Below are positions 14,433 through 36,415 of a stretch of DNA of 39,406 bases, piece by piece. The stretch is from Actinomycetota bacterium. GTDB lineage: Bacteria > Actinomycetota > Thermoleophilia > Gaiellales > Gaiellaceae. Position numbers and translations under genes: made by a program. The stretch is taken from NCBI GenBank assembly GCA_020029625.1, contig JAIBJP010000013.1, forward strand, positions 1 to 39,406. The letters run 5' to 3'. The notes beneath the pieces were generated by a model that searched no databases, was not told the DNA's origin, and saw nothing but the letters and a program-made list of their open reading frames with translations. The stretch's first letter is position 1; every line of letters begins with the position of its first letter.

Positions 14433-15965
14433 ATGCAGCTTGGAATCGGCGTACTGGTCGGCCTCGCAGCCGGTCTCCTCGTCGCCGTGCTCGGCCTTCG
14501 ACTCTTCATGGGGCGTCGCCTGGGCGCTGCCCGCGTCGAGCAGGCGCGTCTCACCGGAGAGGCGAAGCGGTCGGCCGAGTCAGTCCGGCGAGAGGCAGAG
14601 CTCGAGGCGAAGGAGCAAGCGCTCAAGCTCCGCGCGGACCTGGAACACGAGCTCCGGGACCGGCGCGCGCAGATCGTGAAGATCGAGGAGCGCGTCCTCG
14701 CCAAGGAAGAGGACATCGATCGGAAGCTCACCGAATTCGACCGGCGCGAGCAGGGCTTCGCTGACCGCGAGACGCACCTGAAACAGCTACAGGAGGAGCT
14801 CAAGCTCGCCACCGACGGCCAGCTGAAGGAGCTCGAACGCATCTCCGGGATGACGGTGGACGAAGCGAAACGGCACCTGCTCGAGCGCTCAGAAGAGCTC
14901 GTCCGGCACGAGATGGCCCGCATGGTGCGGCAGATGGAGGAGGAGGCCCGCACGGAGGCCAAGCGCCGCGCGCGCAACCTCGTCGCAGACGCCCTTCAGC
15001 GCGTGGCGGCGAGCCACGCTGCCGAGACGACCGTCTCCATCGTCGAGCTTCCGTCTGACGACATGAAAGGCCGGATCATCGGCCGCGAGGGCCGGAACAT
15101 CCGCGCCCTCGAGAACCTCACCGGGGTCGACTTCATCATCGACGACACGCCCCAAGCGGTGGTCCTCTCGTCCTTCGACGGCGTCAGGCGCGAAGTGGCG
15201 AAGCTCACGCTTGCGAAGCTCGTGGAGGACGGGCGCATTCATCCGTCTCGGATCGAGGAGATGTACTACCAGTCCAAGGCGGAGATCGAGGAGCACATCC
15301 GGCAGGCCGGAGAGCAGGCCGTTTTCGAGGCGAACTGCGGGAAGATGCACGACGAGCTCGTGAAGCTGCTCGGGCGCCTTCGCTACCGGACGAGCTACGG
15401 CCAGAACATCCTCAAGCACTCGCTCGAGTGCGCCCACCTCGCCGGGATCATGGCTGCGGAGCTCGGCGCCAGCGTCAAGAACGCGAAGCGGGCGGCTCTC
15501 CTCCACGACGTCGGCAAGGCGATGACGCACGAGGTCGAGGGCTCGCACGCGCTCATCTCCGCCCAGCAGGCGAAGCGCTACGGGGAGTCCCAGCACGTCG
15601 TACACGCCGTCGAAGCGCACCACTACGAGGTGCAGCCCCAGACGGTCGAGGCGGTGCTCGTCATCGCCGCCGACGCGATCTCGGCTTCCCGTCCGGGCGC
15701 CCGCGGCGAGAACCTCGAGAGCTACATCAAGCGGCTCGAGACGCTCGAGAAGATCGCCGGCGAGAAGAAGGGTGTCGAGCGGGTCTTCGCCCTCCAGGCC
15801 GGCCGCGAGATCCGCGTCATGGTCAAGCCCACTGAGGTGGACGACGACACGGCGGTGCTCCTCTCCCACGAGATCGCGCGGGAGATCGAGGACCAGCTCG
15901 AGTATCCGGGCCAGATCAAGGTGACGGTGATCCGGGAGAGCCGGGCGACCGAGTTTGCGAAGTAG
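14433..15965 (+). CDS. rny: Ribonuclease Y
   Basis: N-terminal TM helix, Glu/Lys/Arg-rich coiled coil, KH domain (GRIIGREGRNIRALE) and HD domain (LLHDVGKA). AGGAG lies 8 nt upstream of the ATG. Confidence 0.96.
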   Translation: MQLGIGVLVGLAAGLLVAVLGLRLFMGRRLGAARVEQARLTGEAKRSAESVRREAELEAKEQALKLRADLEHELRDRRAQIVKIEERVLAKEEDIDRKLTEFDRREQGFADRETHLKQLQEELKLATDGQLKELERISGMTVDEAKRHLLERSEELVRHEMARMVRQMEEEARTEAKRRARNLVADALQRVAASHAAETTVSIVELPSDDMKGRIIGREGRNIRALENLTGVDFIIDDTPQAVVLSSFDGVRREVAKLTLAKLVEDGRIHPSRIEEMYYQSKAEIEEHIRQAGEQAVFEANCGKMHDELVKLLGRLRYRTSYGQNILKHSLECAHLAGIMAAELGASVKNAKRAALLHDVGKAMTHEVEGSHALISAQQAKRYGESQHVVHAVEAHHYEVQPQTVEAVLVIAADAISASRPGARGENLESYIKRLETLEKIAGEKKGVERVFALQAGREIRVMVKPTEVDDDTAVLLSHEIAREIEDQLEYPGQIKVTVIRESRATEFAK

Positions 15966-16106
15966 CTAGGGGGCTTGGCGGAACGTCGCTCGTCGCCGGG
16001 ACGCGCGGGTCGTTCCGAGGCAAGGACGCAGGGAGCCCTCGTATCGACTTTAGATACGGGGGCGACCGAGGACACAGCCTCGGGGCGAGCGGCGCGCCTC
16101 CGGCGG
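15966..16106 (+). repeat. Unclassified non-coding, probably structured repeat element, copy A (candidate ncRNA or cis-leader)
   Basis: It fills the whole rny-miaB spacer. By hand alignment it has ~6 differences over ~105 nt, plus a 25/25-identical second block, to the reverse complement of 31765..31918. It contains a 10-bp hairpin (16036-16045/16053-16062) and a second hairpin at 16066-16083. Confidence 0.6.
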
Positions 16107-16115
16107 AGTGGCCGT

Positions 16116-17441
16116 GTGAAGAGCTACTTCGTGACCACGTTCGGATGCCAGATGAACGCTCACGATTCGGAGCGGATCAAGGGGATGCTCGAGTCGCTCG
16201 GCCTGGGGGAGGCGCATTCGCAGGACGACGCCGACGTGATCGTCTTCAACACGTGCACCGTGCGCGAGAAGCCCGACCAGCGCTTCGCGGCTCACCTCGC
16301 TCAGGCGGCCGCGCTCAAGCGCGCGGACCCGGAGCGGGTCATCGCCGTCGGCGGCTGCTATGCGGAGGCGCAGCGAGAGCGAATCTTCGAGCGCTATCCG
16401 TATGTGGACGTTGCGTTCGGGCCGGGGTCGATCCCGCACCTCGGGGACTGGATCGGGGCCGGTGGTGTCGGCGTGGCGAGAGGCAGGTTTGGCCTCGAAG
16501 AGAGAAGTTTCGCGGCGCAGCTCCCGTCCCACCGGCAGCGTCCAGTTCAGGCGTGGGTGCAGGTCTCGATGGGCTGCAACTCGGTCTGCTCCTACTGCAT
16601 CGTCCCCGCCGTCCGGGGCCGAGAGGTCAGCCGCCCGCCGGGCGACATCGTGGCCGAGGTGACGCAACTCGCGTCCGAGGGGGTCCGCGAAGTCACGCTG
16701 CTCGGCCAGAACGTCAACTCCTGGGGGCGCGATCTCCTGCCCGATGTCCGGACGGACTTCGGTGAGCTGCTGCGCGCCGTCGACGCGGTTCCCGGAATCG
16801 AGCGGATTCGCTTCACGAGCCCACACCCGAAGGATTTCCGCGACCCCGTGCTCGCCGCGATGGCCGAATGCGAGGCAGTGTGCGAGCACACGCATCTGCC
16901 GCTCCAGTCGGGCTCGACCCGCGTCCTGAAGGCGATGCGGCGGACCTACGGACGCGAGCGCTACCTCGCGCTCGTCGACAAGCTGCGCGCGGCGATCCCC
17001 GACCTGGCGCTCACGACCGACGTCATCGTCGGTTTCCCCGGCGAGAGCGAAGTCGACTTCCGGGAAACGCTCGAGGTCGTCGAGGAAGTTCGCTACGACG
17101 GCGCCTTCACGTTCGTCTTCAGCCCGCGGCGAGGGACCGAGGCGGCGCGCATGCCCGACCAGGTTCCCGAGGAGACCAAGCGGGAGCGAATCGAGCGCCT
17201 GGTCGAGCTCGTCCAACGAATTGCAGCGGAGCGCAACCGTGAGCGGATCGGTCGTTTCGAAGAGGTGCTGGTCGAAGGAGCGAGCCGAACCGATTCCTCG
17301 CTGCTCCGCGGAAGGACGCGCAGGAACACGACCGTGAACTTCAGCGGCTCGGCGCGGGCGGGTGATCTGGTTCGGGTGGAAATCGAGGGCGCGACGTCGA
17401 CGACGCTCCGTGGAACGCAGGCCGCCCTCGTGGCCGCCTGA
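16116..17441 (+). CDS. miaB: tRNA-2-methylthio-N6-dimethylallyladenosine synthase MiaB (radical SAM methylthiotransferase)
   Basis: VKSYFVTTFGCQMNAHDSE is a typical N-terminus with the UPF0004 cysteines. Radical-SAM CNSVCSYC motif and a C-terminal TRAM domain are present. The GTG at 16116 is preferred; the longer ORF start at 15975 runs through the repeat. Confidence 0.92.
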   Translation: MKSYFVTTFGCQMNAHDSERIKGMLESLGLGEAHSQDDADVIVFNTCTVREKPDQRFAAHLAQAAALKRADPERVIAVGGCYAEAQRERIFERYPYVDVAFGPGSIPHLGDWIGAGGVGVARGRFGLEERSFAAQLPSHRQRPVQAWVQVSMGCNSVCSYCIVPAVRGREVSRPPGDIVAEVTQLASEGVREVTLLGQNVNSWGRDLLPDVRTDFGELLRAVDAVPGIERIRFTSPHPKDFRDPVLAAMAECEAVCEHTHLPLQSGSTRVLKAMRRTYGRERYLALVDKLRAAIPDLALTTDVIVGFPGESEVDFRETLEVVEEVRYDGAFTFVFSPRRGTEAARMPDQVPEETKRERIERLVELVQRIAAERNRERIGRFEEVLVEGASRTDSSLLRGRTRRNTTVNFSGSARAGDLVRVEIEGATSTTLRGTQAALVAA

Positions 17442-24911: not shown

Positions 24912-25025
24912 TCTCGGCCCGTTCCCTCGTTCCAGGGAGGAGCGGGAGGCCCAGTCCGTTCGATGTAGGTGCCGACGGACTTCCCTTGCGGCCCGCGCGC
25001 CAGCGCGGAGGAAGGAATCGACGGC

Positions 25026-26768
25026 ATGCGGCCAGTCGGCGGCACGAAGGGCAATCTGCGAGGCAGCGCTCTCTGGGGCAAGAAGACCAAGGGCGAGGCT
25101 CGCTCGAGCGCGCTCTGGGGCAAGCCCGGGCGCCGCTTCGCCGCCTTCCTCGCCGTGGTCGGCGTGCTCGCCGCTCCGGTTGCCGCACCCGCCTCGACCG
25201 GGAGCGCGGCCTCTTCGGGCGCGCTCGTCCCCGAAGCGCTGCTCGCCCGCGCGCAGGGCCATCCCACCTGGAGCTTCCGCGTTATCGTGCAGGCGAAGCC
25301 GGGCAAGAGCTCGACGTACGTCGCGAGCCTCGTCAGAGACGTCGTCTCGAAGCACCCCGGCAAGTCCAAGGGTTTGAAGAAGAAGTTTTCCGCCGTCAAC
25401 GGCGTCGCCGCCCAGTTGACAGGCGCGCAGCTCGTGCAGCTGGCGAAGCAGAAGGGCATCCTGGCCATCACGCGCGACCGGCGACTCGTCGCCACCGGTC
25501 AGTTCTCGAACGACCAGGGTTGGGCGCAAACCGCAGGCGTGGACGACTACTGGGTCGGCCAGGCGCTTTCCGGCCTCGCGATGCCGGCGATCGCAATCGT
25601 CGACTCCGGCGTCCAGACGGGCCGGCTCGATTTCAGCGGACGCCTGCTCAAGCAGGTTCGCCTCACGAGCCTCGCTCCGAACTCGCTCGGCGACGGGCGC
25701 GGCCACGGAACCTTCGTCGCGGGCATCGCGGCCGGCGCGGCCACCAGGTACGCAGGCGCAGCTCCGACGGCACCGATCGTCTCCCTCGACGTCATGGATG
25801 ACAACGGCATGGCGCTGACGAGCGATGTCATCGCCGCGGCCGACTGGATCCTGCAGAACAAGGCGGCCTACAACATCCGGGTCGCCAACTTCTCGCTGCA
25901 GTCCTCGACCCCGGCCAGCTTCGCTTACGACCCGCTCGACCAGGCGGTCGAGAAGCTCTGGTTCTCCGGTGTCGTTGTGGTCGCCTCCGCCGGCAACTAC
26001 GGCGACAACGGCCAGCCGACGACGGTCGGGTACGCCCCCGGCAACGATCCCTTCATCATCACGGTCGGCGCCTCAGATCTGAACGGAACGCCGTGGAGCG
26101 CTGCGGACGACTTCGCGGCTCCCTGGTCGGCCTTCGGCTACACGCTCGACGGCTTCGCGAAGCCTGACATCGGCGCCCCTGGACGGGTGCTCGTGGGCCC
26201 GGTTCCCTCGTTGTCGACGATGGCGCGTGAGCACCCCGAGCGGGTGACGGCGCCCGGCTACATGTGGATGTCCGGAACGTCTTTCGCCGCGCCCGTCGTC
26301 TCCGGCGCGGCAGCGCTGGTCATCGCCCATCACCCGAACTGGACGCCCGACCAAGTCAAGGGCGCCCTCATGCTGAGCGCGCAGCCTACGGCCGGTGGCA
26401 TGGCTCTGGGCGTGGGGGAGGTCGACGCGAACGCGGCCTCGCAAGTAGCGAGCCCGCCCAACCCGAATCTCGCCCTGAACCAGTTCGTCAGCCCCGACGT
26501 CTCCGGTGGCTTCGCCTTCGACGCGGCCAGCTGGGCCAACACGGCTCAGGCGGACGCGTCATGGAACAGCGCCTCCTGGAACAGCGCGTCCTGGGCGAAC
26601 GCCTCCTGGGCAAATGCCTCCTGGAACAGCGCTTCCTGGGCGAACGCTTCTTGGGCCGCAGCCTCCTGGGCCGCAGCCTCGTGGAATGCCGCCAGCTGGG
26701 CGAACGCTTCCTGGGCCGCCGCCTCGTGGAGCGCTGCCAGCTGGGCCGCAGCGGCCTGGGCTTCATAG
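25026..26768 (+). CDS. Secreted/membrane-anchored S8 subtilisin-like serine peptidase 1 (I9 propeptide + S8 domain + ASWxx pentapeptide array)
   Basis: Catalytic triad contexts AIVDSGV, GHGTFVAGIAAG and SGTSFAAPVVSGAAA. An I9-like propeptide is present. ATG 25026 has GGAGGAAGGA upstream. The N-terminus carries two SALWGK motifs before the hydrophobic segment. Confidence 0.9.
   Translation: MRPVGGTKGNLRGSALWGKKTKGEARSSALWGKPGRRFAAFLAVVGVLAAPVAAPASTGSAASSGALVPEALLARAQGHPTWSFRVIVQAKPGKSSTYVASLVRDVVSKHPGKSKGLKKKFSAVNGVAAQLTGAQLVQLAKQKGILAITRDRRLVATGQFSNDQGWAQTAGVDDYWVGQALSGLAMPAIAIVDSGVQTGRLDFSGRLLKQVRLTSLAPNSLGDGRGHGTFVAGIAAGAATRYAGAAPTAPIVSLDVMDDNGMALTSDVIAAADWILQNKAAYNIRVANFSLQSSTPASFAYDPLDQAVEKLWFSGVVVVASAGNYGDNGQPTTVGYAPGNDPFIITVGASDLNGTPWSAADDFAAPWSAFGYTLDGFAKPDIGAPGRVLVGPVPSLSTMAREHPERVTAPGYMWMSGTSFAAPVVSGAAALVIAHHPNWTPDQVKGALMLSAQPTAGGMALGVGEVDANAASQVASPPNPNLALNQFVSPDVSGGFAFDAASWANTAQADASWNSASWNSASWANASWANASWNSASWANASWAAASWAAASWNAASWANASWAAASWSAASWAAAAWAS
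26526..26765 (+). repeat. 15-nt (pentapeptide ASWxx) tandem array, 16 units, forming the C-terminus of peptidase 1
   Basis: ASWAN TAQAD ASWNS ASWNS ASWAN ASWAN ASWNS ASWAN ASWAA ASWAA ASWNA ASWAN ASWAA ASWSA ASWAA AAWAS, then the stop. Confidence 0.9.
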
Positions 26769-26793
26769 CGCCCCGAGCGCCTCAGCACGCCAA

Positions 26794-26932: not shown

Positions 26933-28783
26933 ATGCGGCGAGATCTGATGCGGCACGATCGCGGTTCGAGCGGAGACCTTCGGTGGAGCGCCCTCTGGGG
27001 CAAGCCCTCGAAGGGCGAGACGCGCTCCAGCGCTCTCTGGGGCAAGGGCGGACGCGGGTTCCTTGCGACGCTCGTCGTCGCTCTCGCGTTGAGCGCGCCC
27101 GCCGCGCTCGCGTCCGGGGGCGGAAGCGAGTACACGGCGTTCACCACCCCGGGCTTGCTCGGCGCCGCCCAGGCGAACCCGAATGCGACCTTCCAGGTCA
27201 TCGTCGAGGGCGACAGGAGCACCGGCTGGGTCGCCAAGCAGATCGCCGACTTCAACAGCTCCAAGGCGAAGGTCAAGCGCCGCTACAGCGTCATCAACGG
27301 AGTCGCCGCCACCCTGACCGGCAAGCAGATTCTCATCCTCGCGCGCAAATCTCGGATTCGCGCGATCACCGAGGACGCTCCGGTGCGGCTCGCCTCTTTC
27401 TCCACCTCCCAGCAGTGGCCTTACGCGTCAGGCGTCGTGAAATCGTGGTGGGACAGTGCGACCAATGTCGTAGCCCAGACGCCGACGATCGCAGTCGTGG
27501 ATTCGGGAATCGAAGCCTCCCGCCCCGATTTCGCGGGCCGTGTGCTGGCCGAGGTCAACCTCACGTCCATCCAGCCGAACTCCCCGGGAGACGGGCGCGG
27601 CCACGGCACCTTCGTCGCAGGCATTGCCGCCGGCGGCGGGGACGGGTACGCCGGCGCCGACCCGCGGGCCAAACTCGTTTCGATCGATGTCATGGACGAC
27701 AGCGGTATGGCGATGACCCGCGACGTCATTGCTGGGGCCGACTGGATCCTCCAGAACAGGGCCGCGTACAACATCCGCGTCGCCAACTTCTCGCTCCACT
27801 CGGCTGTGCCGAACAGCTTCATGTTCGACCCGCTCGACAGGGCGGTCGAGAGGCTCTGGTTCACCGGCGTGACCGTTGTGGTCGCGGCGGGCAACTATGG
27901 GGTCAACGGGCAGCCGAGCGGCGTCCCGTTCGCCCCTGGCAACGATCCGTTCGTCATCACGGTCGGCGCGCTCGACATCGACGGCTCGGTGAAGGCGTGG
28001 GACGACTCGAACGCGCCGTGGTCGGCCTACGGCTACACGCTCGACGGCTTCACGAAGCCCGAGCTCGCGGCCCCAGGGCGCTACATGGTGGGTCCGGTGC
28101 CCGCCGCCTCGACGCTCCCGCAGGAGCGGCCGACGAACGTGGTCGCACCCGGTTACATGCAGCTCTCGGGAACGTCGTTCGCCGCGCCGGTTGTCTCGGG
28201 CGCGGCCGCGTACCTGCTCGCGCTGCACCCCGACTGGACACCGGACCAGGTCAAAGGCGCGCTCATGCTCACCGCGAAGGCGCTTCCGAACGCAGCCCCG
28301 CTCTCGGCAGGCGTCGGTGAAGTGAGCGTGGCGGCGGCAGTCCTCGTCGCGAATCCGCCCAACCCCAACCGGGCTCTCAACAGCTTCCTCGTATCCGATC
28401 CGACGGGCGGATCCGGACGCATCTTCGACGCGGCCAGCTGGGCGAACGCTGCCCAGGCGAGCGCCTCCTGGGCAAACGCCAGTTGGGCGGACGCCTCGTG
28501 GGCCTCGGCTTCCTGGTCGTCCGCTTCGTGGGCATCTGCCTCGTGGGCATCTGCCTCGTGGGCATCTGCCTCGTGGGCGGCCACCGCCAACGCCAGCGCC
28601 TCCTGGGCCGATGCCTCCTGGTCGAACGCGTCCTGGGCGAGCGCCTCCTGGGCGGATAACGCGGAGGGCGATGCGAGCGTCACCGGCGGCTACTGGCTCG
28701 ACCCGGCCGAGCTCGAAGAGGCGGCCGCCGAGCTCGGGCTCGCCGACCCCGCAGCCGCTGCCAGCACGACTGTGCTCCCCTAA
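26933..28783 (+). CDS. Secreted/membrane-anchored S8 subtilisin-like serine peptidase 2 (paralogue of peptidase 1)
   Basis: Same architecture and triad contexts (AVVDSGI, GHGTFVAGIAAG, SGTSFAAPVVSGAAA). Same duplicated SALWGK N-terminal motif and an ASWxx array, plus a ~42-aa acidic tail. ATG 26933 (or 26948) follows GGGAGAGGA. Confidence 0.9.
   Translation: MRRDLMRHDRGSSGDLRWSALWGKPSKGETRSSALWGKGGRGFLATLVVALALSAPAALASGGGSEYTAFTTPGLLGAAQANPNATFQVIVEGDRSTGWVAKQIADFNSSKAKVKRRYSVINGVAATLTGKQILILARKSRIRAITEDAPVRLASFSTSQQWPYASGVVKSWWDSATNVVAQTPTIAVVDSGIEASRPDFAGRVLAEVNLTSIQPNSPGDGRGHGTFVAGIAAGGGDGYAGADPRAKLVSIDVMDDSGMAMTRDVIAGADWILQNRAAYNIRVANFSLHSAVPNSFMFDPLDRAVERLWFTGVTVVVAAGNYGVNGQPSGVPFAPGNDPFVITVGALDIDGSVKAWDDSNAPWSAYGYTLDGFTKPELAAPGRYMVGPVPAASTLPQERPTNVVAPGYMQLSGTSFAAPVVSGAAAYLLALHPDWTPDQVKGALMLTAKALPNAAPLSAGVGEVSVAAAVLVANPPNPNRALNSFLVSDPTGGSGRIFDAASWANAAQASASWANASWADASWASASWSSASWASASWASASWASASWAATANASASWADASWSNASWASASWADNAEGDASVTGGYWLDPAELEEAAAELGLADPAAAASTTVLP
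28433..28657 (+). repeat. 15-nt (pentapeptide ASWxx) tandem array, 15 units, near the C-terminus of peptidase 2
   Basis: ASWAN AAQAS ASWAN ASWAD ASWAS ASWSS ASWAS ASWAS ASWAS ASWAA TANAS ASWAD ASWSN ASWAS ASWAD. It includes three perfect 15-nt units (28526-28570). Confidence 0.9.
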
Positions 28784-28989: not shown

Positions 28990-31737
28990 ATGAGCGCAGT
29001 ACCCAGGGAGTATCGAGGCGCCGAGCCGAGGCCGGCATCGGAGCAGGGCGAGCCCACTCTTTCGAGGGGCGCCAAGGTCTACCTGGCCGCCGTCGGCATT
29101 GCCACCGTCGTAGCGGCGTTCGTGCCGCTCTCGCACCTGTCCCCGCAAACGAGAGGGTGGCCGACCTTTTTCGTGATCGCTTCCTGCGCCGCGATCGCGC
29201 AGCTCTTCGTCGTCCGCACCCCGCGCGACCAGTCCTACCACACCTCGATCGTCTTCCTGATCCCGGCGGCGCTGCTCCTGCCGCCGGAGCTCGTCGCGCT
29301 GGTGGGCATCGTGCAGCACATCCCTGAATGGCTGAAGGTTCGCTACCCCTGGTACATCCAGTGCTTCAACATCTGCAACTACACGCTGAACGGCCTGGCG
29401 GCCTGGGGGGCGGTGTGGCTCGTCCGCGACCTCGGCCTCTCCAGTCAGCCGACGATGGCGCTCGCCGGACTCGCCGCGTGTGTCGTCTTCGTCGCGACGA
29501 ACCATGTGCTTCTCGCCACCATGCTCCATTTCGCACGCGGGCACACGCTGCGGGAAACCGGGCTCTTCTCGGGCGACAGCCTCGCCACCGACCTTGTCCT
29601 CGCCGCCCTCGGCGTCGCCTTCGCCAGCCTGTGGCGGTGGAATCCCTACCTCCTGCCCACCGCTGTCGCGCCACTGCTCCTGATTCATCGGTCCCTCAGC
29701 GTTCCCGCGCTCCAGGAAGAAGCGCGCGTGGATGCGAAGACCGGCCTCTTCAACGCCCGTCATTTCGCCGCGGAGCTGCGCGAGGAGCTGGCGCGCGCCA
29801 ACCGCTTCGATCGGCCGATGTCCGTGATCATGGCCGACCTCGACCTGCTCCGGGACATCAACAACTCGTACGGTCATCTTGCCGGCGACGCGGTTCTCAA
29901 CGGCATCGCTGACGTCTTCCGAAAGCAGCTGAGGCCATACGACGTCCCGGCCCGATTCGGCGGAGAGGAGTTCGCCATCCTCCTGCCGGAGACGGCGCCC
30001 GAGACTGCGCTCGAGATCGCCGAGCGCATCCGGCGCGCCGTCGCCGAGCACCTCTTCGAGGTGGAGACCTCGAGTGAGCCCATCCGCGCCACCATCTCCC
30101 TGGGCGTCGCGGGCTACCCGAAGGACGGCTCCGACCCGAACGAGCTGATCCACCAGGCAGACCTCGCCGTCTACCGAGCGAAGCTCCAGGGCCGCAACCG
30201 CGTCCTCGGCGCGAGCTCCGAGCCGCTGCTCATGCCCGGGGAGAGGAGCCCTCGCCTCGCCGCCGTGCCGGAGGAGGGGGAGTACGTCGCCACCGCCTCG
30301 CGCGTCCTCCCTGAGCAGCGTGCGAGCGAGCTCCGCGAAGCTCAGCAGCAGCGGCCGCACACCCCCGGCAGGCCGCACTTCCTCGCCCTTTCGGCTCCTC
30401 TTGCAGCCCTCGTCGGGCTGGTCGCGATCGCCGGTATCGCTGCGGGCATCGCGGGACTCCTCTTCGGTACGACCAGCGATGTCATCGGGCTGATCGCCAT
30501 CGTCGTCCTCGTGGGCGGCGGCCAGGCGCTCTCCCTCGAGCTCGAAGCGGGCTCGATCTCGGTGAGCGCCGTCGGGGCGCTCGCCGGCGCGGGCCTCTTT
30601 GGACCGCGCGCCGCCCTGCCGCTCGCCGTCGCCATCGTTGCCGTCGAGTGGAGTGCTCGGCGCGACGACTGGTACTACGCCCTCTTCAACATCGGAGCCT
30701 TGAGCCTCGCGTCGCTCGCCGCGGCAGCGGTGTTCAGCGTCGGCTGGGTCGACAGCCGTGCCGGCGAGCTCGTGACCGCCGGAGCCGGCCTCGCGGCCGG
30801 CGCCGCCTACTTCGCCGTCAACACGGCGCTCATCTCGCTTGCCATGGCCCTCGAGGGACACGACCGCTGGCGTTCCGTCTGGAAGGAGCGCTTCTCCTGG
30901 CTCCTCCCGCACTACGTCGCCTTCGGAGCGGTCGGCAGCGCGATCGCTCTCGCCTACGGCGCCATTGGCCTCTACGGGCTCGCCGTCTTCGTCCTGCCGC
31001 TCCTGCTCATGCGCAAGACGATGGCCGCCTACCTCGGGCACACCGAGAAGTCGACGAAGAAGCTGCGCAAGGCGGCCGAGACCATCCGCTCGCAGAACGT
31101 CTCCCTCGAACAGGCGAACCGGCTCCTGAAGGAGCGCTCCACCGCCGCCATGGAGAGCCTCTCGGCCACGGTGGACGCGCGCGACGCGTACACGGCCGGC
31201 CACTCGCGGCGCGTGCAGCAGCTCGCGCTCGCCATCGGCCGCGAGCTCGGCTTGTCCCAGGCCGAGCTGGATCTGCTGGGGCATGCGGCTCTCTTCCACG
31301 ACATCGGCAAGCTCGCCATCCCCGACGCGGTCCTGCTCAAGCCGGCCAGTCTGACAGTCGACGAGTGGGCGCTCATGCAGCGTCACGCGGACGAGGGCGC
31401 CCGCATCATCGACCGCCTGGGCTTCCTGAACGACGCCGTGCCGGCCATCCGCCACCATCACGAGCGGTTCGACGGCACCGGCTACCCGGACGGCCTCTCC
31501 GGCGAGGACATCCCGCTCGGCGCGCGCATCATTCACGTTGCCGACGCCCTCGATTCGATGCTGACGACGCGCATCTACCGCGCTGCTCGTCCCGCGGACG
31601 AGGCTCTCGAGGAGCTCCGGCGAGGGTCGACAACCCAGTTCTGTCCGCGCTGCGTCTCGGCGCTCGAGCGGCTCCTGCAGACCGATGCCCGAGACCCGCA
31701 GCAGCCGGCGGGAGCCCTGCTGGCGACGGCTTCTTAA
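28990..31737 (+). CDS. Polytopic membrane protein fusing a diguanylate cyclase (GGDEF) and an HD-GYP c-di-GMP phosphodiesterase
   Basis: Order is TM module, GGDEF domain, second TM module, HD-GYP domain. The GGDEF domain has RxxD (RPYD) five residues before GGEEF. The HD-GYP domain has HSRRV, FHDIGK and HHERFDGTGYPDG. Confidence 0.9.
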   Translation: MSAVPREYRGAEPRPASEQGEPTLSRGAKVYLAAVGIATVVAAFVPLSHLSPQTRGWPTFFVIASCAAIAQLFVVRTPRDQSYHTSIVFLIPAALLLPPELVALVGIVQHIPEWLKVRYPWYIQCFNICNYTLNGLAAWGAVWLVRDLGLSSQPTMALAGLAACVVFVATNHVLLATMLHFARGHTLRETGLFSGDSLATDLVLAALGVAFASLWRWNPYLLPTAVAPLLLIHRSLSVPALQEEARVDAKTGLFNARHFAAELREELARANRFDRPMSVIMADLDLLRDINNSYGHLAGDAVLNGIADVFRKQLRPYDVPARFGGEEFAILLPETAPETALEIAERIRRAVAEHLFEVETSSEPIRATISLGVAGYPKDGSDPNELIHQADLAVYRAKLQGRNRVLGASSEPLLMPGERSPRLAAVPEEGEYVATASRVLPEQRASELREAQQQRPHTPGRPHFLALSAPLAALVGLVAIAGIAAGIAGLLFGTTSDVIGLIAIVVLVGGGQALSLELEAGSISVSAVGALAGAGLFGPRAALPLAVAIVAVEWSARRDDWYYALFNIGALSLASLAAAAVFSVGWVDSRAGELVTAGAGLAAGAAYFAVNTALISLAMALEGHDRWRSVWKERFSWLLPHYVAFGAVGSAIALAYGAIGLYGLAVFVLPLLLMRKTMAAYLGHTEKSTKKLRKAAETIRSQNVSLEQANRLLKERSTAAMESLSATVDARDAYTAGHSRRVQQLALAIGRELGLSQAELDLLGHAALFHDIGKLAIPDAVLLKPASLTVDEWALMQRHADEGARIIDRLGFLNDAVPAIRHHHERFDGTGYPDGLSGEDIPLGARIIHVADALDSMLTTRIYRAARPADEALEELRRGSTTQFCPRCVSALERLLQTDARDPQQPAGALLATAS

Positions 31738-31764
31738 GGAGGGCTTGACGAAACATCGTCTGTG

Positions 31765-31918
31765 CCGCCGGAGGCGCGCCGCTCGCCCCAACGCATCCGC
31801 GTTCAGAATCACGGGTCGCCCCCGTATCTGAAGTCGATACGAGGGCTCCCTGCGTCCTTGCCTCGGAACGACCAGCGCGTCCCGGCGACGGAGCAACGTT
31901 CCGCCAAACCCTCCTAGC
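31765..31918 (-). repeat. Unclassified non-coding, probably structured repeat element, copy B (inverted relative to copy A)
   Basis: Its reverse complement aligns to 15965..16106. Two conserved blocks are separated by a linker of different length and sequence. The linker still forms a hairpin (AACGC-ggat-GCGTT). Confidence 0.6.
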
Positions 31919-31967: not shown

Positions 31968-32711
31968 GTGCAGATCGATTCCGCCGACCTGGCTGCATTC
32001 CAGGCGGGGATGCGCCGCCGCTATTCGGACGACGAGATCCTCGCCGAGCTGAAAGGCTCTGCGACCCGCCTCGGCCGCTCCCCGACGATGCGTGAGTTCG
32101 AGCGCGATCGGGGCACTCGGATCCACCCCCAGACGGTCATCGACCGGTTCGGAACGTGGAACACCGCCAAGCGTTTGGCCGGACTGCGCCCGCGCCGATT
32201 TGCGACGCGTGAGGAGCTCCTCGCCGAGCTCCGGATGCTGGGCGAGGAGCTCGGCCGCCCACCCACGGGCGGAGACCTCCAGCGCCGGCGCGCGACGATG
32301 CCGTCCAAGTCCCTCTACTGGCACACCTTCGGATCTCTCCGCAACGCCCTCCGGGAAGCCGGTTTCGACGTTCCGCTCGGCGAGGAACGGCTGGAACGGG
32401 CGGTCGAGGACGGCGCGGCCCTCGCACGCCGGCTCAGGCGCCTGCCGCGTTTCACGGACTGGGCGGCCGAGCGCAAGCGCAACCAGGGGCTCCCCAGCGA
32501 GTGGCAGGTCTACCGGCTCGCGGGAGGTCGCCGGGGCGCCTGGACCACGTTCCAGTACCTCGTGCGAAGCCGTCTGGTGGAGGATGGCGCCGAAGTCGGC
32601 GCGGACGGGCGGGTCAGCGTCCCGCGGCGGCCGTCGCGAGCGCGGCCAGCCGGGCGAGACAGAACTGCTGCTCCTCGGGGGCGCGCACGGAGGGGAGCGG
32701 CGCTTCCGTGA
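31968..32711 (+). CDS. Protein composed of three homing-endonuclease-associated (HNH_repeat-like) repeats, with no nuclease domain
   Basis: Three ~55-aa units of the form EE(I/L)LAEL..(L)GR.PT...........FG(T/S)(W/L)..A...AG. Unit 1 ends DRFGTWNTAKRLAGL and unit 2 ends HTFGSLRNALREAGF. Unit 3 is degenerate. GTG at 31968, with ATG 32010 as an alternative. Confidence 0.65.
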   Translation: MQIDSADLAAFQAGMRRRYSDDEILAELKGSATRLGRSPTMREFERDRGTRIHPQTVIDRFGTWNTAKRLAGLRPRRFATREELLAELRMLGEELGRPPTGGDLQRRRATMPSKSLYWHTFGSLRNALREAGFDVPLGEERLERAVEDGAALARRLRRLPRFTDWAAERKRNQGLPSEWQVYRLAGGRRGAWTTFQYLVRSRLVEDGAEVGADGRVSVPRRPSRARPAGRDRTAAPRGRARRGAALP

Positions 32712-33518: not shown

Positions 33519-34508
33519 GTGGGACGGCCTGTCCGCAGACTGCCTTCGCCCGAACCCGATCCGACTCCCGGGGAGGACGGCGAGGAGACAAAGCTCGAGC
33601 TCGTGCCCGAGGCGGCTCTGGACGCCCCGGTTGACGCCGAGGAAGAGGACGAGGAGGACCGCAAAGAGCGTCTGGCGGCCGGCCCGACCCAGGATCCGCT
33701 CAAGCTCTACGTCCGCCAGATCGGTGACGGGCCCCTCCTGACGCCTGCAGAGGAGCGCGAGCTCGCGAGGCTGAAGGACGAGGGCGACGAGGCCGCCAAG
33801 CGCCGCCTGATCGAGTCGAACCTGCGGCTCGTGATGTCGATCACCCGCAACTACGTGAACTCGGGCGTTCCCCTACTCGACCTGATCCAGGAGGGAAACC
33901 TCGGCCTCATCCGGGCCGTGGAGAAGTTCGACTACAAGATGGGCTACAAGCTTTCGACCTACGCCACCTGGTGGATCCGCCAGGCGGTGACACGCGCGAT
34001 CGCCGACCAGGGCCGCACGATCCGCCTTCCCGTCCACGTCGTCGACCAGGTGCGGCGCGTGATGCGCGCGCGCCGGATCCTCACGCAGAAGCTCAACCGC
34101 GATCCGCTCCCGGACGAGATCGCCAAGGAGAGCGGCTTCGACGTCAAGCGCGTCAACGAGCTACTCGATCTCGTGGAGGACCCCGTCAGCCTCGAGACGC
34201 CCGTCGGTGACGGCGACTCCATGTACGCCGACATGATCGAGGACGTCAACTCCGAGCAGCCGGAAGCCACGCTCGCCGTCATGCTTCGCGGCGCGGAGCT
34301 GCAGATCGCGCTGGCCCAGCTCTCCGAGCGCATGCGCCACGTGCTGGAGCTTCGCTTCGGGCTGACCGGGGCCGTTCCGAAGACGCTCGAGGAGGTCGGC
34401 GCCGAGCTCGGCGTGACCCGCGAGCGCGTGCGCCAGCTCGAGTCCCGAGCCCTCCGCGAGCTCCAAGCGGCAGCGCCGGACCTGCGCCTCTATCTCCGCA
34501 CCGAATAG
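33519..34508 (+). CDS. RNA polymerase sigma-70 family factor (group 1/2-like, regions 1.2-4 with a short acidic N-terminus)
   Basis: DPLKLYVRQIG (region 1.2), [48 protein letters not shown] (2.2-2.4), and region 4.2 LEEVGAELGVTRERVRQLESRAL. The GTG 33519 start is uncertain. Confidence 0.88.
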   Translation: MGRPVRRLPSPEPDPTPGEDGEETKLELVPEAALDAPVDAEEEDEEDRKERLAAGPTQDPLKLYVRQIGDGPLLTPAEERELARLKDEGDEAAKRRLIESNLRLVMSITRNYVNSGVPLLDLIQEGNLGLIRAVEKFDYKMGYKLSTYATWWIRQAVTRAIADQGRTIRLPVHVVDQVRRVMRARRILTQKLNRDPLPDEIAKESGFDVKRVNELLDLVEDPVSLETPVGDGDSMYADMIEDVNSEQPEATLAVMLRGAELQIALAQLSERMRHVLELRFGLTGAVPKTLEEVGAELGVTRERVRQLESRALRELQAAAPDLRLYLRTE

Positions 34509-34666: not shown

Positions 34667-35395
34667 GTGGACCCAGTGTTCGTCGACGTCCACTCGCACG
34701 TCGTTCCCTCGGGCGACGACGGGGCCCAGAGCAACGAGGAAGGGCTCGAGCTCTGCCGGAGCGCGGCGCAGAACGGGACGACGGTTCTCTACGCCACCCC
34801 TCACGTCTGGCCGATGCTTCCCCTGCCGCCGGAGCGGGAGGAGACCATCCGCGCGAGCCACGCCGAGCTGGCCCGCGCTGCAGCCGCCTTCGGGCTGGAC
34901 CTTCGGCTCGGCTTCGAGCTGACGCCGACCACGGCGCTGCTGGAGGAGGACCCCAACCGCTTCCGACTCGGCGACCTCCCGGCCGTCCTCATGGAAGTGC
35001 CCTTCCACGGCTCTCTCGACCTCGCTGAGCGCCTCGCAGAGCACATCGAGGCAGTGGGCCTAGTCCCTGTGATCGCACATCCAGAGCGTTCTCAGGCCGT
35101 CCTGGACGATCAAGGCCTCGCCGCAGGAATGGCCGAGCGGGGCTGGCTCCTGCAGGTCAACGCCACGAGCATCGTCGGCTACCACGGAGCCGAGATCGAA
35201 GCGAGCGCCTGGCGGCTCGTCGACGACGGCCTCGCCGGCCTCGTGGCCTCCGACGGACACCGCCGCGCGCGGCCGCCGCACCTCAACGAGGCCTTCCGGG
35301 CCGTCCAGGCGAGACTGGGGGAGGGGGCTAACGCTCTCTTCGACGGCCGGGCTCTACCGGCTGGCGACCGCGTCGATCTCGCGGAGCGACGCTAG
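34667..35395 (+). CDS. PHP-family protein-tyrosine phosphatase (CpsB/YwqE-like)
   Basis: [15 protein letters not shown] at the N-terminus, then ATPHV, IAHPER and ASDGH metal-ligand motifs. GTG 34667 is chosen so the protein starts just before the DxHxH motif. ORF track start is 34526. Confidence 0.72.
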
Positions 35396-36415
35396 CCGGG
35401 AGAGCGATTCGATCTCGATCTGGCGCACGCGCTCGCGCGTGATGCCGAGCCGGCGCCCGATGTGCTCGAGCGTGTGCGGCTCCTCGCCGCGCAGCCCGTA
35501 GCGGAGCTCGAGGACACGCCGGTCGCGCTCGGGGAGAGACTCCAGAGCCCGGTCGAGGGCCTCCTTCTGGAGCCGGCGCTCCGTCTCCTCTTCGGGCAGC
35601 GGGTCCTCGCCGGCGACGAGATCCCCGAAGACCGCATCCTCCTGCTCGCCGATCGGCTGGTCGAGGCTCGTGGAGGCCCGAGCCGCCGCCCGCACTTCGA
35701 TCGCCTGCTGCAACGGAAGACCGGCCTCATGCGCGATCTCCTCGAGCGAAGGCTCACGCGCGAGCTGCGTCCAGAGATGCCTTTCGGCGCGATGCATCTT
35801 CTGCATGCGCTCGACGACGTGGACGGGAACGCGGATCGTCCGCGCCTTGTCCGCGATCGCGCGGGCGACCGCCTGGCGGATCCACCAGGTGGCGTACGTC
35901 GAGAACTTCAGACCCCGCTGCCACTCGAACTTCTCGACGGCGCGGATGAGGCCGAACATTCCCTCCTGGATCAGGTCGAGGAAGGGGAGGCCCTGGTTGC
36001 GGTAGTTCTTCGCGATCGAGACGACGAGCCGAAGGTTGCATTCGATCATGCGGCGCTTGGCTTCCATGTCGCCGCGCTCGATTCGCTTCGAGAGCTCCAC
36101 CTCGTCGGCGGCCGTGAGCAGCGGGTGGCGTCCGATCTCGCGGAGGAAGAGCTGCAGCGCGTCCGTGGTCGTCTCGAGCACCTCGGTCGCGCGTGGGGGG
36201 GCGGTCGGCTCGCGTGCGGGCTCCTTCGGCGCCTCGACGACCTCGATGTTGCGCTCCTCGAGCTCGCGATAGAAAGCCTCCACATCCGCTGGCTCCACCT
36301 CGAGCGCGTCGAGAGCCTCGGTCAACTCGGTAGCGTCGAGAAACCCGGCCGCCTCGCCGCGCTCGAACAGATGCTGGATCTCCTCGTTGGTGAGGGCGGT
36401 CGTCTCGTCTGCCAT
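35354..36415 (-). CDS. rpoD: RNA polymerase sigma factor, probable principal sigma (RpoD/SigA-like, with an acidic region 1.1)
   Basis: Acidic N-terminus ([35 protein letters not shown]). [46 protein letters not shown], and 4.2 [19 protein letters not shown] follow. 42-nt convergent overlap with the phosphatase gene. Confidence 0.88.

Follow-up and report, generated by a model that had tools for sequence, protein, structure and literature searches.

A probable MITE-like mobile repeat of Thermoleophilia with a near-invariant core folded on one strand

Related palindromic repeats and the two copies in the window

Bacterial MITEs have been characterised as small (about 100-300 bp), non-coding sequences with terminal inverted repeats, 5'-TA-3' termini, duplication of the target and dispersed copies (Delihas 2008, PMC2229807). 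The Correia or NEMIS elements of Neisseria resemble the element described here in their length of about 100-200 bp, in their terminal inverted repeats and TA termini with duplication of TA, and in their tens to hundreds of intergenic copies in both orientations, for which inversion is also known (PMC2229807, PMC10969869). Correia transcripts form a long hairpin that is cut by RNase III, and some copies contain an internal IHF site (PMC2229807, PMC10969869). A further likeness is seen with RUP of Streptococcus pneumoniae, a short palindrome at TA whose terminal inverted repeats are like those of an IS630-family element; IS630-Spn1 is the proposed driver of RUP and serves as a model for mobilisation in trans (PMC2229807). 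The ERIC/IRU and YPAL elements of enterobacteria are likewise imperfect palindromes in transcribed operon spacers, in either orientation, and show empty and filled sites between strains (PMC2229807, PMC10969869). Orientation-dependent effects on mRNA stability have been described for these elements, and the targets of YPAL lie at or beside dyad symmetry (PMC2229807, PMC10969869).

The element from Thermoleophilia differs from each of these. Correia/NEMIS belongs to another phylum, shows no sequence relation and is A+T-rich, whereas the Thermoleophilia element is about 68% G+C and has a central asymmetric core across unrelated terminal inverted repeats as well as a pairing bias towards one strand. 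RUP has a known matching IS; as no such IS was found for the Thermoleophilia element, the TA/CTAG target is its only link to IS630. ERIC/IRU and YPAL differ in sequence, host range and termini, and no core across unrelated arm families has been reported for them. The mycobacterial MIRUs and the Rickettsia palindromic elements (RPEs) are small repeats at stop/start junctions or in genes, which stay intact. MIRUs occur as direct repeats in tandem and contain small ORFs, and RPEs are inserted in frame within coding regions; the Thermoleophilia element, in contrast, forms one long hairpin and has no conserved reading frame.

The range of most MITE families is limited to one genus or family. Thermoleophilia are abundant, little-studied soil actinobacteria, and our literature search found no specific description of a Thermoleophilia repeat or ncRNA. 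The element is an undescribed MITE family of ordinary kind, unusual only in its near-invariant core folded on one strand. It was filed as such because its small size, lack of a coding gene, terminal inverted repeats, TA termini, dispersal, filled and empty sites, orientations and stem-loop are published hallmarks (PMC2229807), with the duplication entered on account of one clean site.

Two copies, A and B, lie in the window, by which we mean the whole stretch of 39,406 nt that was analysed. Their features were as follows.

15963-15968, plus strand: rny stop codon TAG (15963-15965) followed by C-TA; the TA insertion site to the left of copy A, within CTAG
15969-16106, plus strand: copy A, delimited by alignment with copy B and L006; 5' terminal repeat GGGGGCTTGGCGG, 5' arm, core and inner 3' arm
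16018-16073, plus strand: core of copy A; AGGCAAGGACGCAGGGAG, P3, then CGACCGAGGAC, the 5' half matching the search pattern
16036-16062, plus strand: P3 hairpin of copy A from MFE folds; CCCTCGTATC, loop GACTTTA, GATACGGGGG
16116-17441, plus strand: miaB coding sequence with GTG start at 16116, from translation; context only
31735-31737, plus strand: TAA that ends the GGDEF/HD-GYP gene; in element orientation it is the TA(R) flanking copy B on the 3' side
31738-31914, minus strand: copy B at its full length of 177 nt; terminal inverted repeats GGAGGGTTTGGCGGAACG...CGTTTCGTCAAGCCCTCC
31790-31813, minus strand: subfamily-specific module CGTGATTCTGAACGCGGATGCGTT with hairpin AACGC-GGAT-GCGTT, in place of the 3' core strand YGAGGACGC
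31814-31863, minus strand: core of copy B; AGGCAAGGACGCAGGGAG, P3 (31819-31845), then GGCGACC
31915-31916, minus strand: TA flank at the 5' end of copy B (G-C-TA-GGAGGG)

Copy A was located between the rny stop codon and the miaB start, on the strand of both genes, and its end was 9 nt from the miaB start. The miaB orthologue carried the Pfam domains UPF0004, Radical_SAM and TRAM. Copy B was located between the genes for a GGDEF/HD-GYP membrane protein (28990-31737, plus strand) and an HNH_repeat protein (31968-32711, plus strand) and was antisense to both. The identities of the genes in the window were taken from orthologous contigs. By its RNase Y homologues the window was assigned to Gaiellaceae, class Thermoleophilia.

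The repeat search of the window paired 15991-16067 with 31814-31890 (77 nt, 97% complementary) and 16077-16106 with 31765-31794 (30 nt, 93%). This similarity was far above chance, and copies A (plus) and B (minus) are true homologues, as the earlier note on this DNA had proposed from the sequence alone. The MAFFT alignment also reproduced its description of the two blocks: about six differences had been counted in block 1, and 4 substitutions and two 1-nt indels were found; block 2 (GGGGCGAGCGGCGCGCCTCCGGCGG) was identical at 25 of 25 positions, and the linker between them had 13 nt (copy A) or 23 nt (copy B). A hairpin had been seen in the linker of both copies, which proved not to be general across the family alignment. 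The aligned region stood, but the extent was redrawn: copy B is longer (31738-31914, minus strand) and runs about 27 nt further 3' (CACAGACGATGTTTCGTCAAGCCCTCC), and copy A (15969-16106) has lost its 3' end.

Copy A lacks, through deletion, its 3' terminal repeat as well as some 45 nt of the ancestral spacer. Copy A was recognised as truncated at the 3' end because L006, which is 98% identical, keeps the tail followed by the ancestral 49-nt spacer; the tail of L006 (CACAGATGATGTTTCGTCAAGCCCTTC) matched the newly included 3' part of copy B. Copy A is a decayed copy without this end and is probably immobile. With covariance model R1, built on 75 non-redundant copies, copies A and B scored 82.2 and 47.7 bits, respectively, and were the only matches in the window. 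Both copies lay in long ORFs, but a coding reading was rejected, as the indels and the varying length of P3 break any common frame; the view that conservation acts on nucleotides or structure and not on protein was upheld. The minus-strand ORF over copy B was discarded as Arg-rich antisense junk. Promoter and terminator scans detected neither kind of site around either copy.

No Rfam 15 family matched at the gathering score in the window, in agreement with the statement that no known riboswitch or sRNA family was recognised, nor in 14 further loci (104 kb, all subfamilies). In E-value mode copy A gave only noise (RsmW, E = 0.5), and a short form of the element gave nothing at E<5. BLAST of full-length copy B against plasmid and phage collections gave no match.

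Filled and empty sites, ends and target

The element was absent from the rny-miaB spacer in 8 of 9 related loci, and the site was filled only in the window and in L006. The spacer was 0 nt in L003 and L004 (RNase Y identity of 90%), where the genes overlap by 4 nt, 49 nt in L007-L009 (95%) and 67 nt in L001 (90%), all without the element. In L005 (87%) it consisted of 263 nt of unrelated sequence, and in L006 (98%) of 237 nt with the element present. The empty sites read AAGTAGCTAGAGCC in L008 and AAGTAACTAAGGGG in L007. The element between rny and miaB is therefore an insertion and not a conserved spacer. As a separate observation, the window and L006, its 98% relative, carry different family members at this site.

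The earlier note had considered an RNA dedicated to regulating the rny-miaB operon in cis (as a miaB leader or riboswitch, or as an rny 3' UTR element), of which a second copy lies elsewhere. Such an RNA would account for the way in which copy A fills the spacer, lies in the orientation of both genes 9 nt before the miaB start and folds strongly. However, orthologous spacers lacked the element in relatives whose RNase Y is 87-95% identical, rny and miaB overlap in some of these, copy B and 44 other copies are antisense to their neighbours, and the same element was found beside unrelated genes. This explanation is highly improbable and was refuted by the empty orthologous sites. For annotation, recognising the mobile repeat avoids a wrong entry as miaB leader or riboswitch.

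The copy B site was also polymorphic. Between the GGDEF and HNH_repeat genes, the filled sites had spacers of 230 nt (window) and 227 nt (L132, 97% identity), and the empty sites had spacers of 52 nt (L130, 90%), 47 nt (L131, 88%) and 66 nt (a relative of 93%). The filled site read ...TTCT-TAA, GGAGGGCTTG...CCAAACCCTCC, TAG-CCTCCGCTTGCGC, and the empty site read ...TTCG-TGA-GCGGCGCTTGCGC, with a single TGA directly followed by the spacer (L130, L131). There was one stop codon at the empty site and a TA(R) on each side of the element at the filled site (TAA, element, TAG). At the dcd-NUDIX junction, a more distant family member was inserted in inverted orientation in L007 and L008, and the two genes overlapped in the window and in four other relatives. 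With the ilvB/ilvN/downstream locus described below, filled/empty polymorphism was seen at four loci: rny-miaB, GGDEF-HNH_repeat, dcd-NUDIX and ilvB/ilvN/downstream.

Full elements were about 180-230 bp in length, copy B having 177 nt, and consisted of terminal inverted repeats, two mutually pairing arms and a central asymmetric core. The terminal inverted repeats of full-length copies were GGAGGGTTTGG...CCAAGCCCTCC, flanked by TA, usually within CTAG or CTAA and often as part of a stop codon. Most long copies read C-TA-(TIR ... TIR)-TA-R, as in L032 (TTC-TA-GGAGGGTTTGG...CCAAACCCTCC-TA-GG), and a second type of end read C-TA-GTGCCCCGTCC...GGACGGGGCAC-TA-G. The repeats were of the type GGAGGGTTTGGCGGAACG / CGTTTCGYCAAGCCCTCC and of three other types (e.g., GTGCCCC.../...GGGGCAC). 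TA preceded the GGAGG terminus in 28 of 41 scored copies and stood at both ends of about 13 of 20 clean GGAGGG-type copies, in DNA of about 69% G+C in which TA is rare. Pairing stops at the TA, since the next base varies (G, A or C). A 73-nt derivative with terminal inverted repeats and TA flanks and without the core was present in L054.

Duplication of the target was seen directly only where copy B is inserted, and both dcd and ilv were ambiguous in this respect; in most copies it is not separable from the last base pairs of the hairpin because TA, CTAG and TCATGA are self-complementary. The earlier note had held that its reading of a structured RNA would be overturned by a plain MITE/REP, dispersed in many copies that have terminal inverted repeats and duplicate their target sites, and a dispersed MITE was indeed found. 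We consider it very likely that copies A and B are members of a non-autonomous, MITE-like palindromic mobile repeat that forms a superfamily across Thermoleophilia (Gaiellales and Solirubrobacterales).

A repeat of the REP/REPIN type that a RAYT transposase disperses would also be intergenic and palindromic and often placed at gene ends, as the element is, and so would a simple intrinsic terminator. The element's 180-230 nt with an asymmetric core do not agree with REP units of 20-40 nt, however, its terminal inverted repeats are flanked by TA, and it has neither a T-run nor a terminator-like site. Either of these identities is extremely improbable.

For the MITE-like mobile repeat, the sites show insertion at TA, mostly in CTAG or CTAA and often at a stop codon or stop/start overlap, in either orientation; after insertion a stop codon still stands. 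About 1.3 Mb of collected loci were searched for TA-flanked inverted repeats 600-3000 bp apart, and no autonomous IS with matching ends was found; only two inverted-repeat pairs were returned, both unrelated. Since no such IS was found, the type of transposase can only be suggested: mobilisation in trans would be by a TA-duplicating DDE transposase, IS630/Tc1-mariner-like or of the IS5 group. The TA/CTAG target fits IS630 itself and some IS5-group elements. It also corresponds to the target put forward for RUP and IS630-Spn1 (PMC2229807). Read-through transcription would place a very stable rod-shaped hairpin in the mRNA, that of copy A in the rny-miaB transcript, and by analogy with Correia and ERIC (PMC10969869) this rod might serve as a substrate of RNase III or have a stabilising effect on 3' ends.

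Core, subfamilies and spread in Thermoleophilia

The 21-nt core pattern AGRCAAGGACRCAGGRAGCCC, the part common to the window, L006 and L007/L008 copies, was found in at least 120 stretches of the genome collection, where about 2-6 matches are expected by chance according to our own calculation. All were in Thermoleophilia MAGs among the matches listed, with the labels Gaiellaceae, Gaiellales, Solirubrobacterales, Conexibacteraceae, Thermoleophilaceae and unclassified 'Actinomycetes'. Among the same matches, at least 7 copies were present in CAVTYV and 3-4 in each of DATNOU, DASXRO and CAVZDP. The covariance model found 13 further copies without the exact pattern in 1.06 Mb of flanking DNA, a density of about 1 per 75 kb, and the 39-kb window contains 2 copies. 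The model and the 21-nt signature mark hundreds of unannotated intergenic insertions in Thermoleophilia. In viral contigs, 5 matches to a relaxed core pattern were rejected as chance, because none exceeded 16 bits with the covariance model.

By crude gene calls among the matches listed, 44 copies were antisense and 32 sense to both neighbours, 15 lay between divergent genes and 14 between convergent genes. Orientation relative to the neighbours was close to random over these roughly 120 copies.

As clustering of the arms showed, there were four large subfamilies with 35, 31, 17 and 4 members, whose arm sequences are unrelated. A core of about 56-75 nt was common to at least four arm subfamilies and consisted of AGGCAAGGACGCAGGGAG, a covarying hairpin and GGCGACYGAGGAC; in full it reads AGGCAAGGACGCAGGGAG, P3 (base GCCC/GGGC, upper stem and loop variable), then GGCGACYGAGGACGC. 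The 3' core strand GGCGACYGAGGAC, which was not part of the search, was invariant or nearly so in the 75 non-redundant copies, and the invariance of the 5' core strand was partly forced by the search pattern. The 13 copies found with the covariance model keep GGACGCAGGGAG and GACYGAGGAC, and the base of P3 changes in a compensatory manner in them (CCC/GGG to CGC/GCG).

In the Gaiellaceae variant to which copy B belongs, CGTGATTCTGAACGCGGATGCGTT takes the place of the 3' core strand. The same replacement was found in L006, L027, L029, L049, L077 and L081, and the module is duplicated in L006. Because of this swapped strand and the core-less derivative, a complete core is not needed for spread. 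Short forms with the inner arms only and without recognisable terminal inverted repeats and TA flanks were located at orthologous loci in several species, with outer stems specific to each locus. One core in at least four subfamilies of Gaiellales and Solirubrobacterales raises the question of whether a MITE may carry a selected RNA or ssDNA structure, and what reads it.

Fold on one strand and repeated insertion at operon junctions

The sense strand is taken as the strand with AGGCAAGGAC, plus for copy A and minus for copy B. On the strand and extent given in the earlier note, both copies folded into one long rod, copy A at -93.4 kcal/mol (z -6.5) and copy B at -91.7 kcal/mol (z -4.6), and the opposite strands reached only -69 and -65, respectively. 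Full-length copy B gave -121.4 kcal/mol (z -10.8) on the minus strand and -82.6 (z -4.1) on the other. The sense strand was the more stable one in 109 of 117 copies.

Standard pairs made up 95.9% of the three-helix cells in the 75-sequence alignment, compared with 33-43% when the partners were slid by 1-3 columns. Double changes occurred in 303 cells of this alignment, compared with 89 in shuffles, and none of 500 shuffles reached 303. Covariation supported P3, the arms and the closing helix, in which the R-Y pair of AGRC with GYAU was G-C in 61 copies and A-U in 9; in P3, the compensatory changes at pair 51/77 were AU 32, CG 24 and GC 15. Among the three helices put forward in the earlier note, P1 and P3 were supported by strong covariation, and P3 was confirmed as a 10-bp apical hairpin on top of the long helix with strong covariation across the family; a lack of covariation had been named as counting against them. 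P2 (GGTCG/CGACC) was not supported by the family alignment: in subfamilies with arms unable to pair with CGACC, this sequence is part of the conserved core strand. In that alignment the 5' arm pairs with the 3' arm, leaving GGCGACYGAGGAC as the conserved core strand.

Mismatches between the arms were more often of the G.U type (593) than of the A.C type (216). G.U exceeded A.C in 92 elements and A.C exceeded G.U in 4. The G.U:A.C counts in the four large subfamilies were 179:38, 107:19, 77:26 and 20:1, and the ratio was about 4 in every orientation class, whether sense or antisense to the neighbours. The covariation in P1-P3 and the 3-4:1 excess of G.U over A.C show that the sense-strand fold is maintained. 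The independence of this excess (about 3-4:1) from the direction of the host gene points to a selected single-stranded fold, as RNA or ssDNA. A plain dsDNA cut-and-paste MITE gives no reason for a one-strand G.U bias. The plain model also leaves unexplained why subfamilies with unrelated ends, in two orders, have an invariant core in common, and why there are stable short forms at orthologous operon sites.

Within the core, the internal loop can be read as a helix that contains G-C, G.A, A.G and C-G (GGAC opposite GGAC) and, in addition, G-Y, G-C, G.A, A.G and G-C (GGGAG opposite CGACY). Y, the sole variable base of the 3' core strand, was always pairable with G (G-C 36, G-U 39). As invariant positions yield no covariation, these tandem G.A helices are a suggested reading. 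The core would then form an irregular helix with tandem G.A pairs, probably a platform for recognition by a protein.

Such a core could be a functional structured RNA, for example one that binds protein or serves as a decoy and has a purine-rich G.A helix, and the different inverted-repeat chassis would merely carry and multiply it; the short forms at ilvN and ssb-rpsR would be domesticated functional copies. Judged from sequence comparison, this is possible but doubtful. It agrees with the near-invariance of the core across at least four arm subfamilies in two orders, the covariation of P3 and the arms, the G.U excess on one strand whatever the host gene direction, the retention of a Y that can pair with G (G-C 36, G-U 39), and the upkeep of short forms at orthologous loci in several species with compensatory changes in their stems. 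However, neither a promoter nor a terminator was detected, many copies are antisense to local genes (44 to both neighbours compared with 32 sense, among the matches listed), the proliferating Gaiellaceae subfamily that includes copy B has swapped the 3' core strand, a core-less derivative exists, and concerted evolution among copies could mimic conservation.

The fold may instead be needed as ssDNA, with a hairpin intermediate recognised on one strand by an HUH-type or structure-specific enzyme, unlike in a MITE with terminal inverted repeats moved by a DDE enzyme. Strand-specific pairing that tolerates G.T is a property of the element itself and not of host transcription; insertion is repeated at the same sites, in both orientations and beside short dyad symmetry, and no DDE partner was found in the collected loci. 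Tandem G.A mismatches are stable in DNA too. Nevertheless, clear TA-flanked terminal inverted repeats are typical of DDE elements, and orientation relative to local GC skew was unbiased (50 and 60, in a weak test). IS200/IS605 ssDNA elements have left and right ends with distinct hairpins, a strand bias relative to replication and no terminal inverted repeats, whereas the Thermoleophilia element has terminal inverted repeats and one continuous hairpin. A need for the fold as ssDNA is unlikely.

Taking the MITE-like mobile repeat as the carrier, we tentatively suggest, at rather low confidence, that the core is an undescribed structured module of one strand (RNA or ssDNA, about 56-75 nt, with two tandem G.A motifs). 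It might be a protein-binding RNA spread across the class by at least four inverted-repeat vehicles, or a site recognised by an insertion machinery that depends on the hairpin and homes to stop codons and stop/start overlaps.

A stop codon adjoins many of the copies, on one side or on both. At ilvN, 80 metagenomic loci with 79-97% identity were surveyed. A short form was located directly after the ilvN stop codon in 17-18 of the 80 loci, and another subtype was located at the overlap of the ilvB stop and the ilvN start in 8 of the 80, between CATGA...CATGA and divided 3 to 5 by orientation. The remaining loci were empty, and the filled loci were scattered over the ilvN tree. The same stop-codon sites of ilvB and ilvN have been filled or emptied repeatedly. 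Reuse of stop codons and stop/start overlaps in essential operons (rny-miaB, ilvBN, ssb-rpsR and dcd-NUDIX) provides a natural series for the uncoupling of genes by insertion.

At the ilvN site, the outermost stem pairs and covaries with the last ilvN codons, the outer stems being GGAGAC/CCTCC, CTCAGAC/CCTGAG, GTCTGAC/GTCAGAC and TCAGAT/ATCTGA. It was considered that the outer stems of the short forms could be older hairpins that the core entered; however, dyad symmetry around the stop codon at empty ilvN sites was 3-4 bp at most. L066 and L094 have both flanks in common, and the element is inverted between them.

The rny–miaB site in a close relative

L006 3419-3600: family member at the rny–miaB site of a relative whose RNase Y is 98% identical to that of the window

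In L006, the insertion site was the same as in the rny–miaB spacer of the window, where it holds copy A (15969-16106, +), and was occupied by a different member of the palindromic repeat family. The L006 element has two copies of CGTGATTCTGAACGCGGATGCGTT, the hairpin module that replaces the usual 3' core strand in the subfamily of copy B (31738-31914, −); the second takes the place of hairpin P3. The L006 element was nearer to copy B than to copy A. Comparison of the two sites implies re-insertion or gene conversion at a single TA target.

Insertions and reduced forms in other relatives

L146, L150, L153, L154, L159, L166, L186 and L187, about 1085-1202: distinct subtype at ilvB/ilvN
L074 949-1052 and L092 6706-6811: short form (core with inner arms only), ssb–rpsR
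L054 2080-2155: 73-nt 'mini' derivative

The distinct subtype, with P3 reading GCGTGGCGTGC-TCT-GCACGCGAGC, was located exactly at the overlap of the ilvB stop and the ilvN start in all eight loci. It was found in both orientations, bounded by CATGA...CATGA, and the ilvB C-terminus was shorter in some of these loci. L066 and L094, from two species, shared both element flanks, and the element between them was in opposite orientation. Either the element inverted through its arms, or it was inserted independently at one site.

In the ribosomal-protein operon, the short form was located between ssb (C-terminal ...DDDIPF) and rpsR, and its stems showed many compensatory changes between the two species. 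The mini derivative consisted of the two terminal repeats alone, flanked by TA and lacking the core.

Neighbouring gene and other repeats in the window

31968-32711: HNH_repeat gene adjoining copy B
26532-26777 and 28439-28654: 15-nt period repeats
33685-34135 and 35721-36171: inverted repeat, 451 nt, 71% identity

The gene beside copy B encodes a protein built from HNH_repeat (homing-endonuclease-associated) units. Its position was kept in relatives both with and without the element, and it is therefore unrelated to the element.

The 15-nt repeats encode a C-terminal pentapeptide array (ASWNS/ASWAN/ASWAA, about 14 units). They lie at the end of each gene in a tandem pair of S8-peptidase-like paralogues (24969-26768 and 26933-28783; 70–73% identical). 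The inverted repeat seems to represent a pair of paralogous genes, one on each strand: 33519-34508 (+) and 35354-36415 (−). Sigma70 domains were found in the orthologue of the former.
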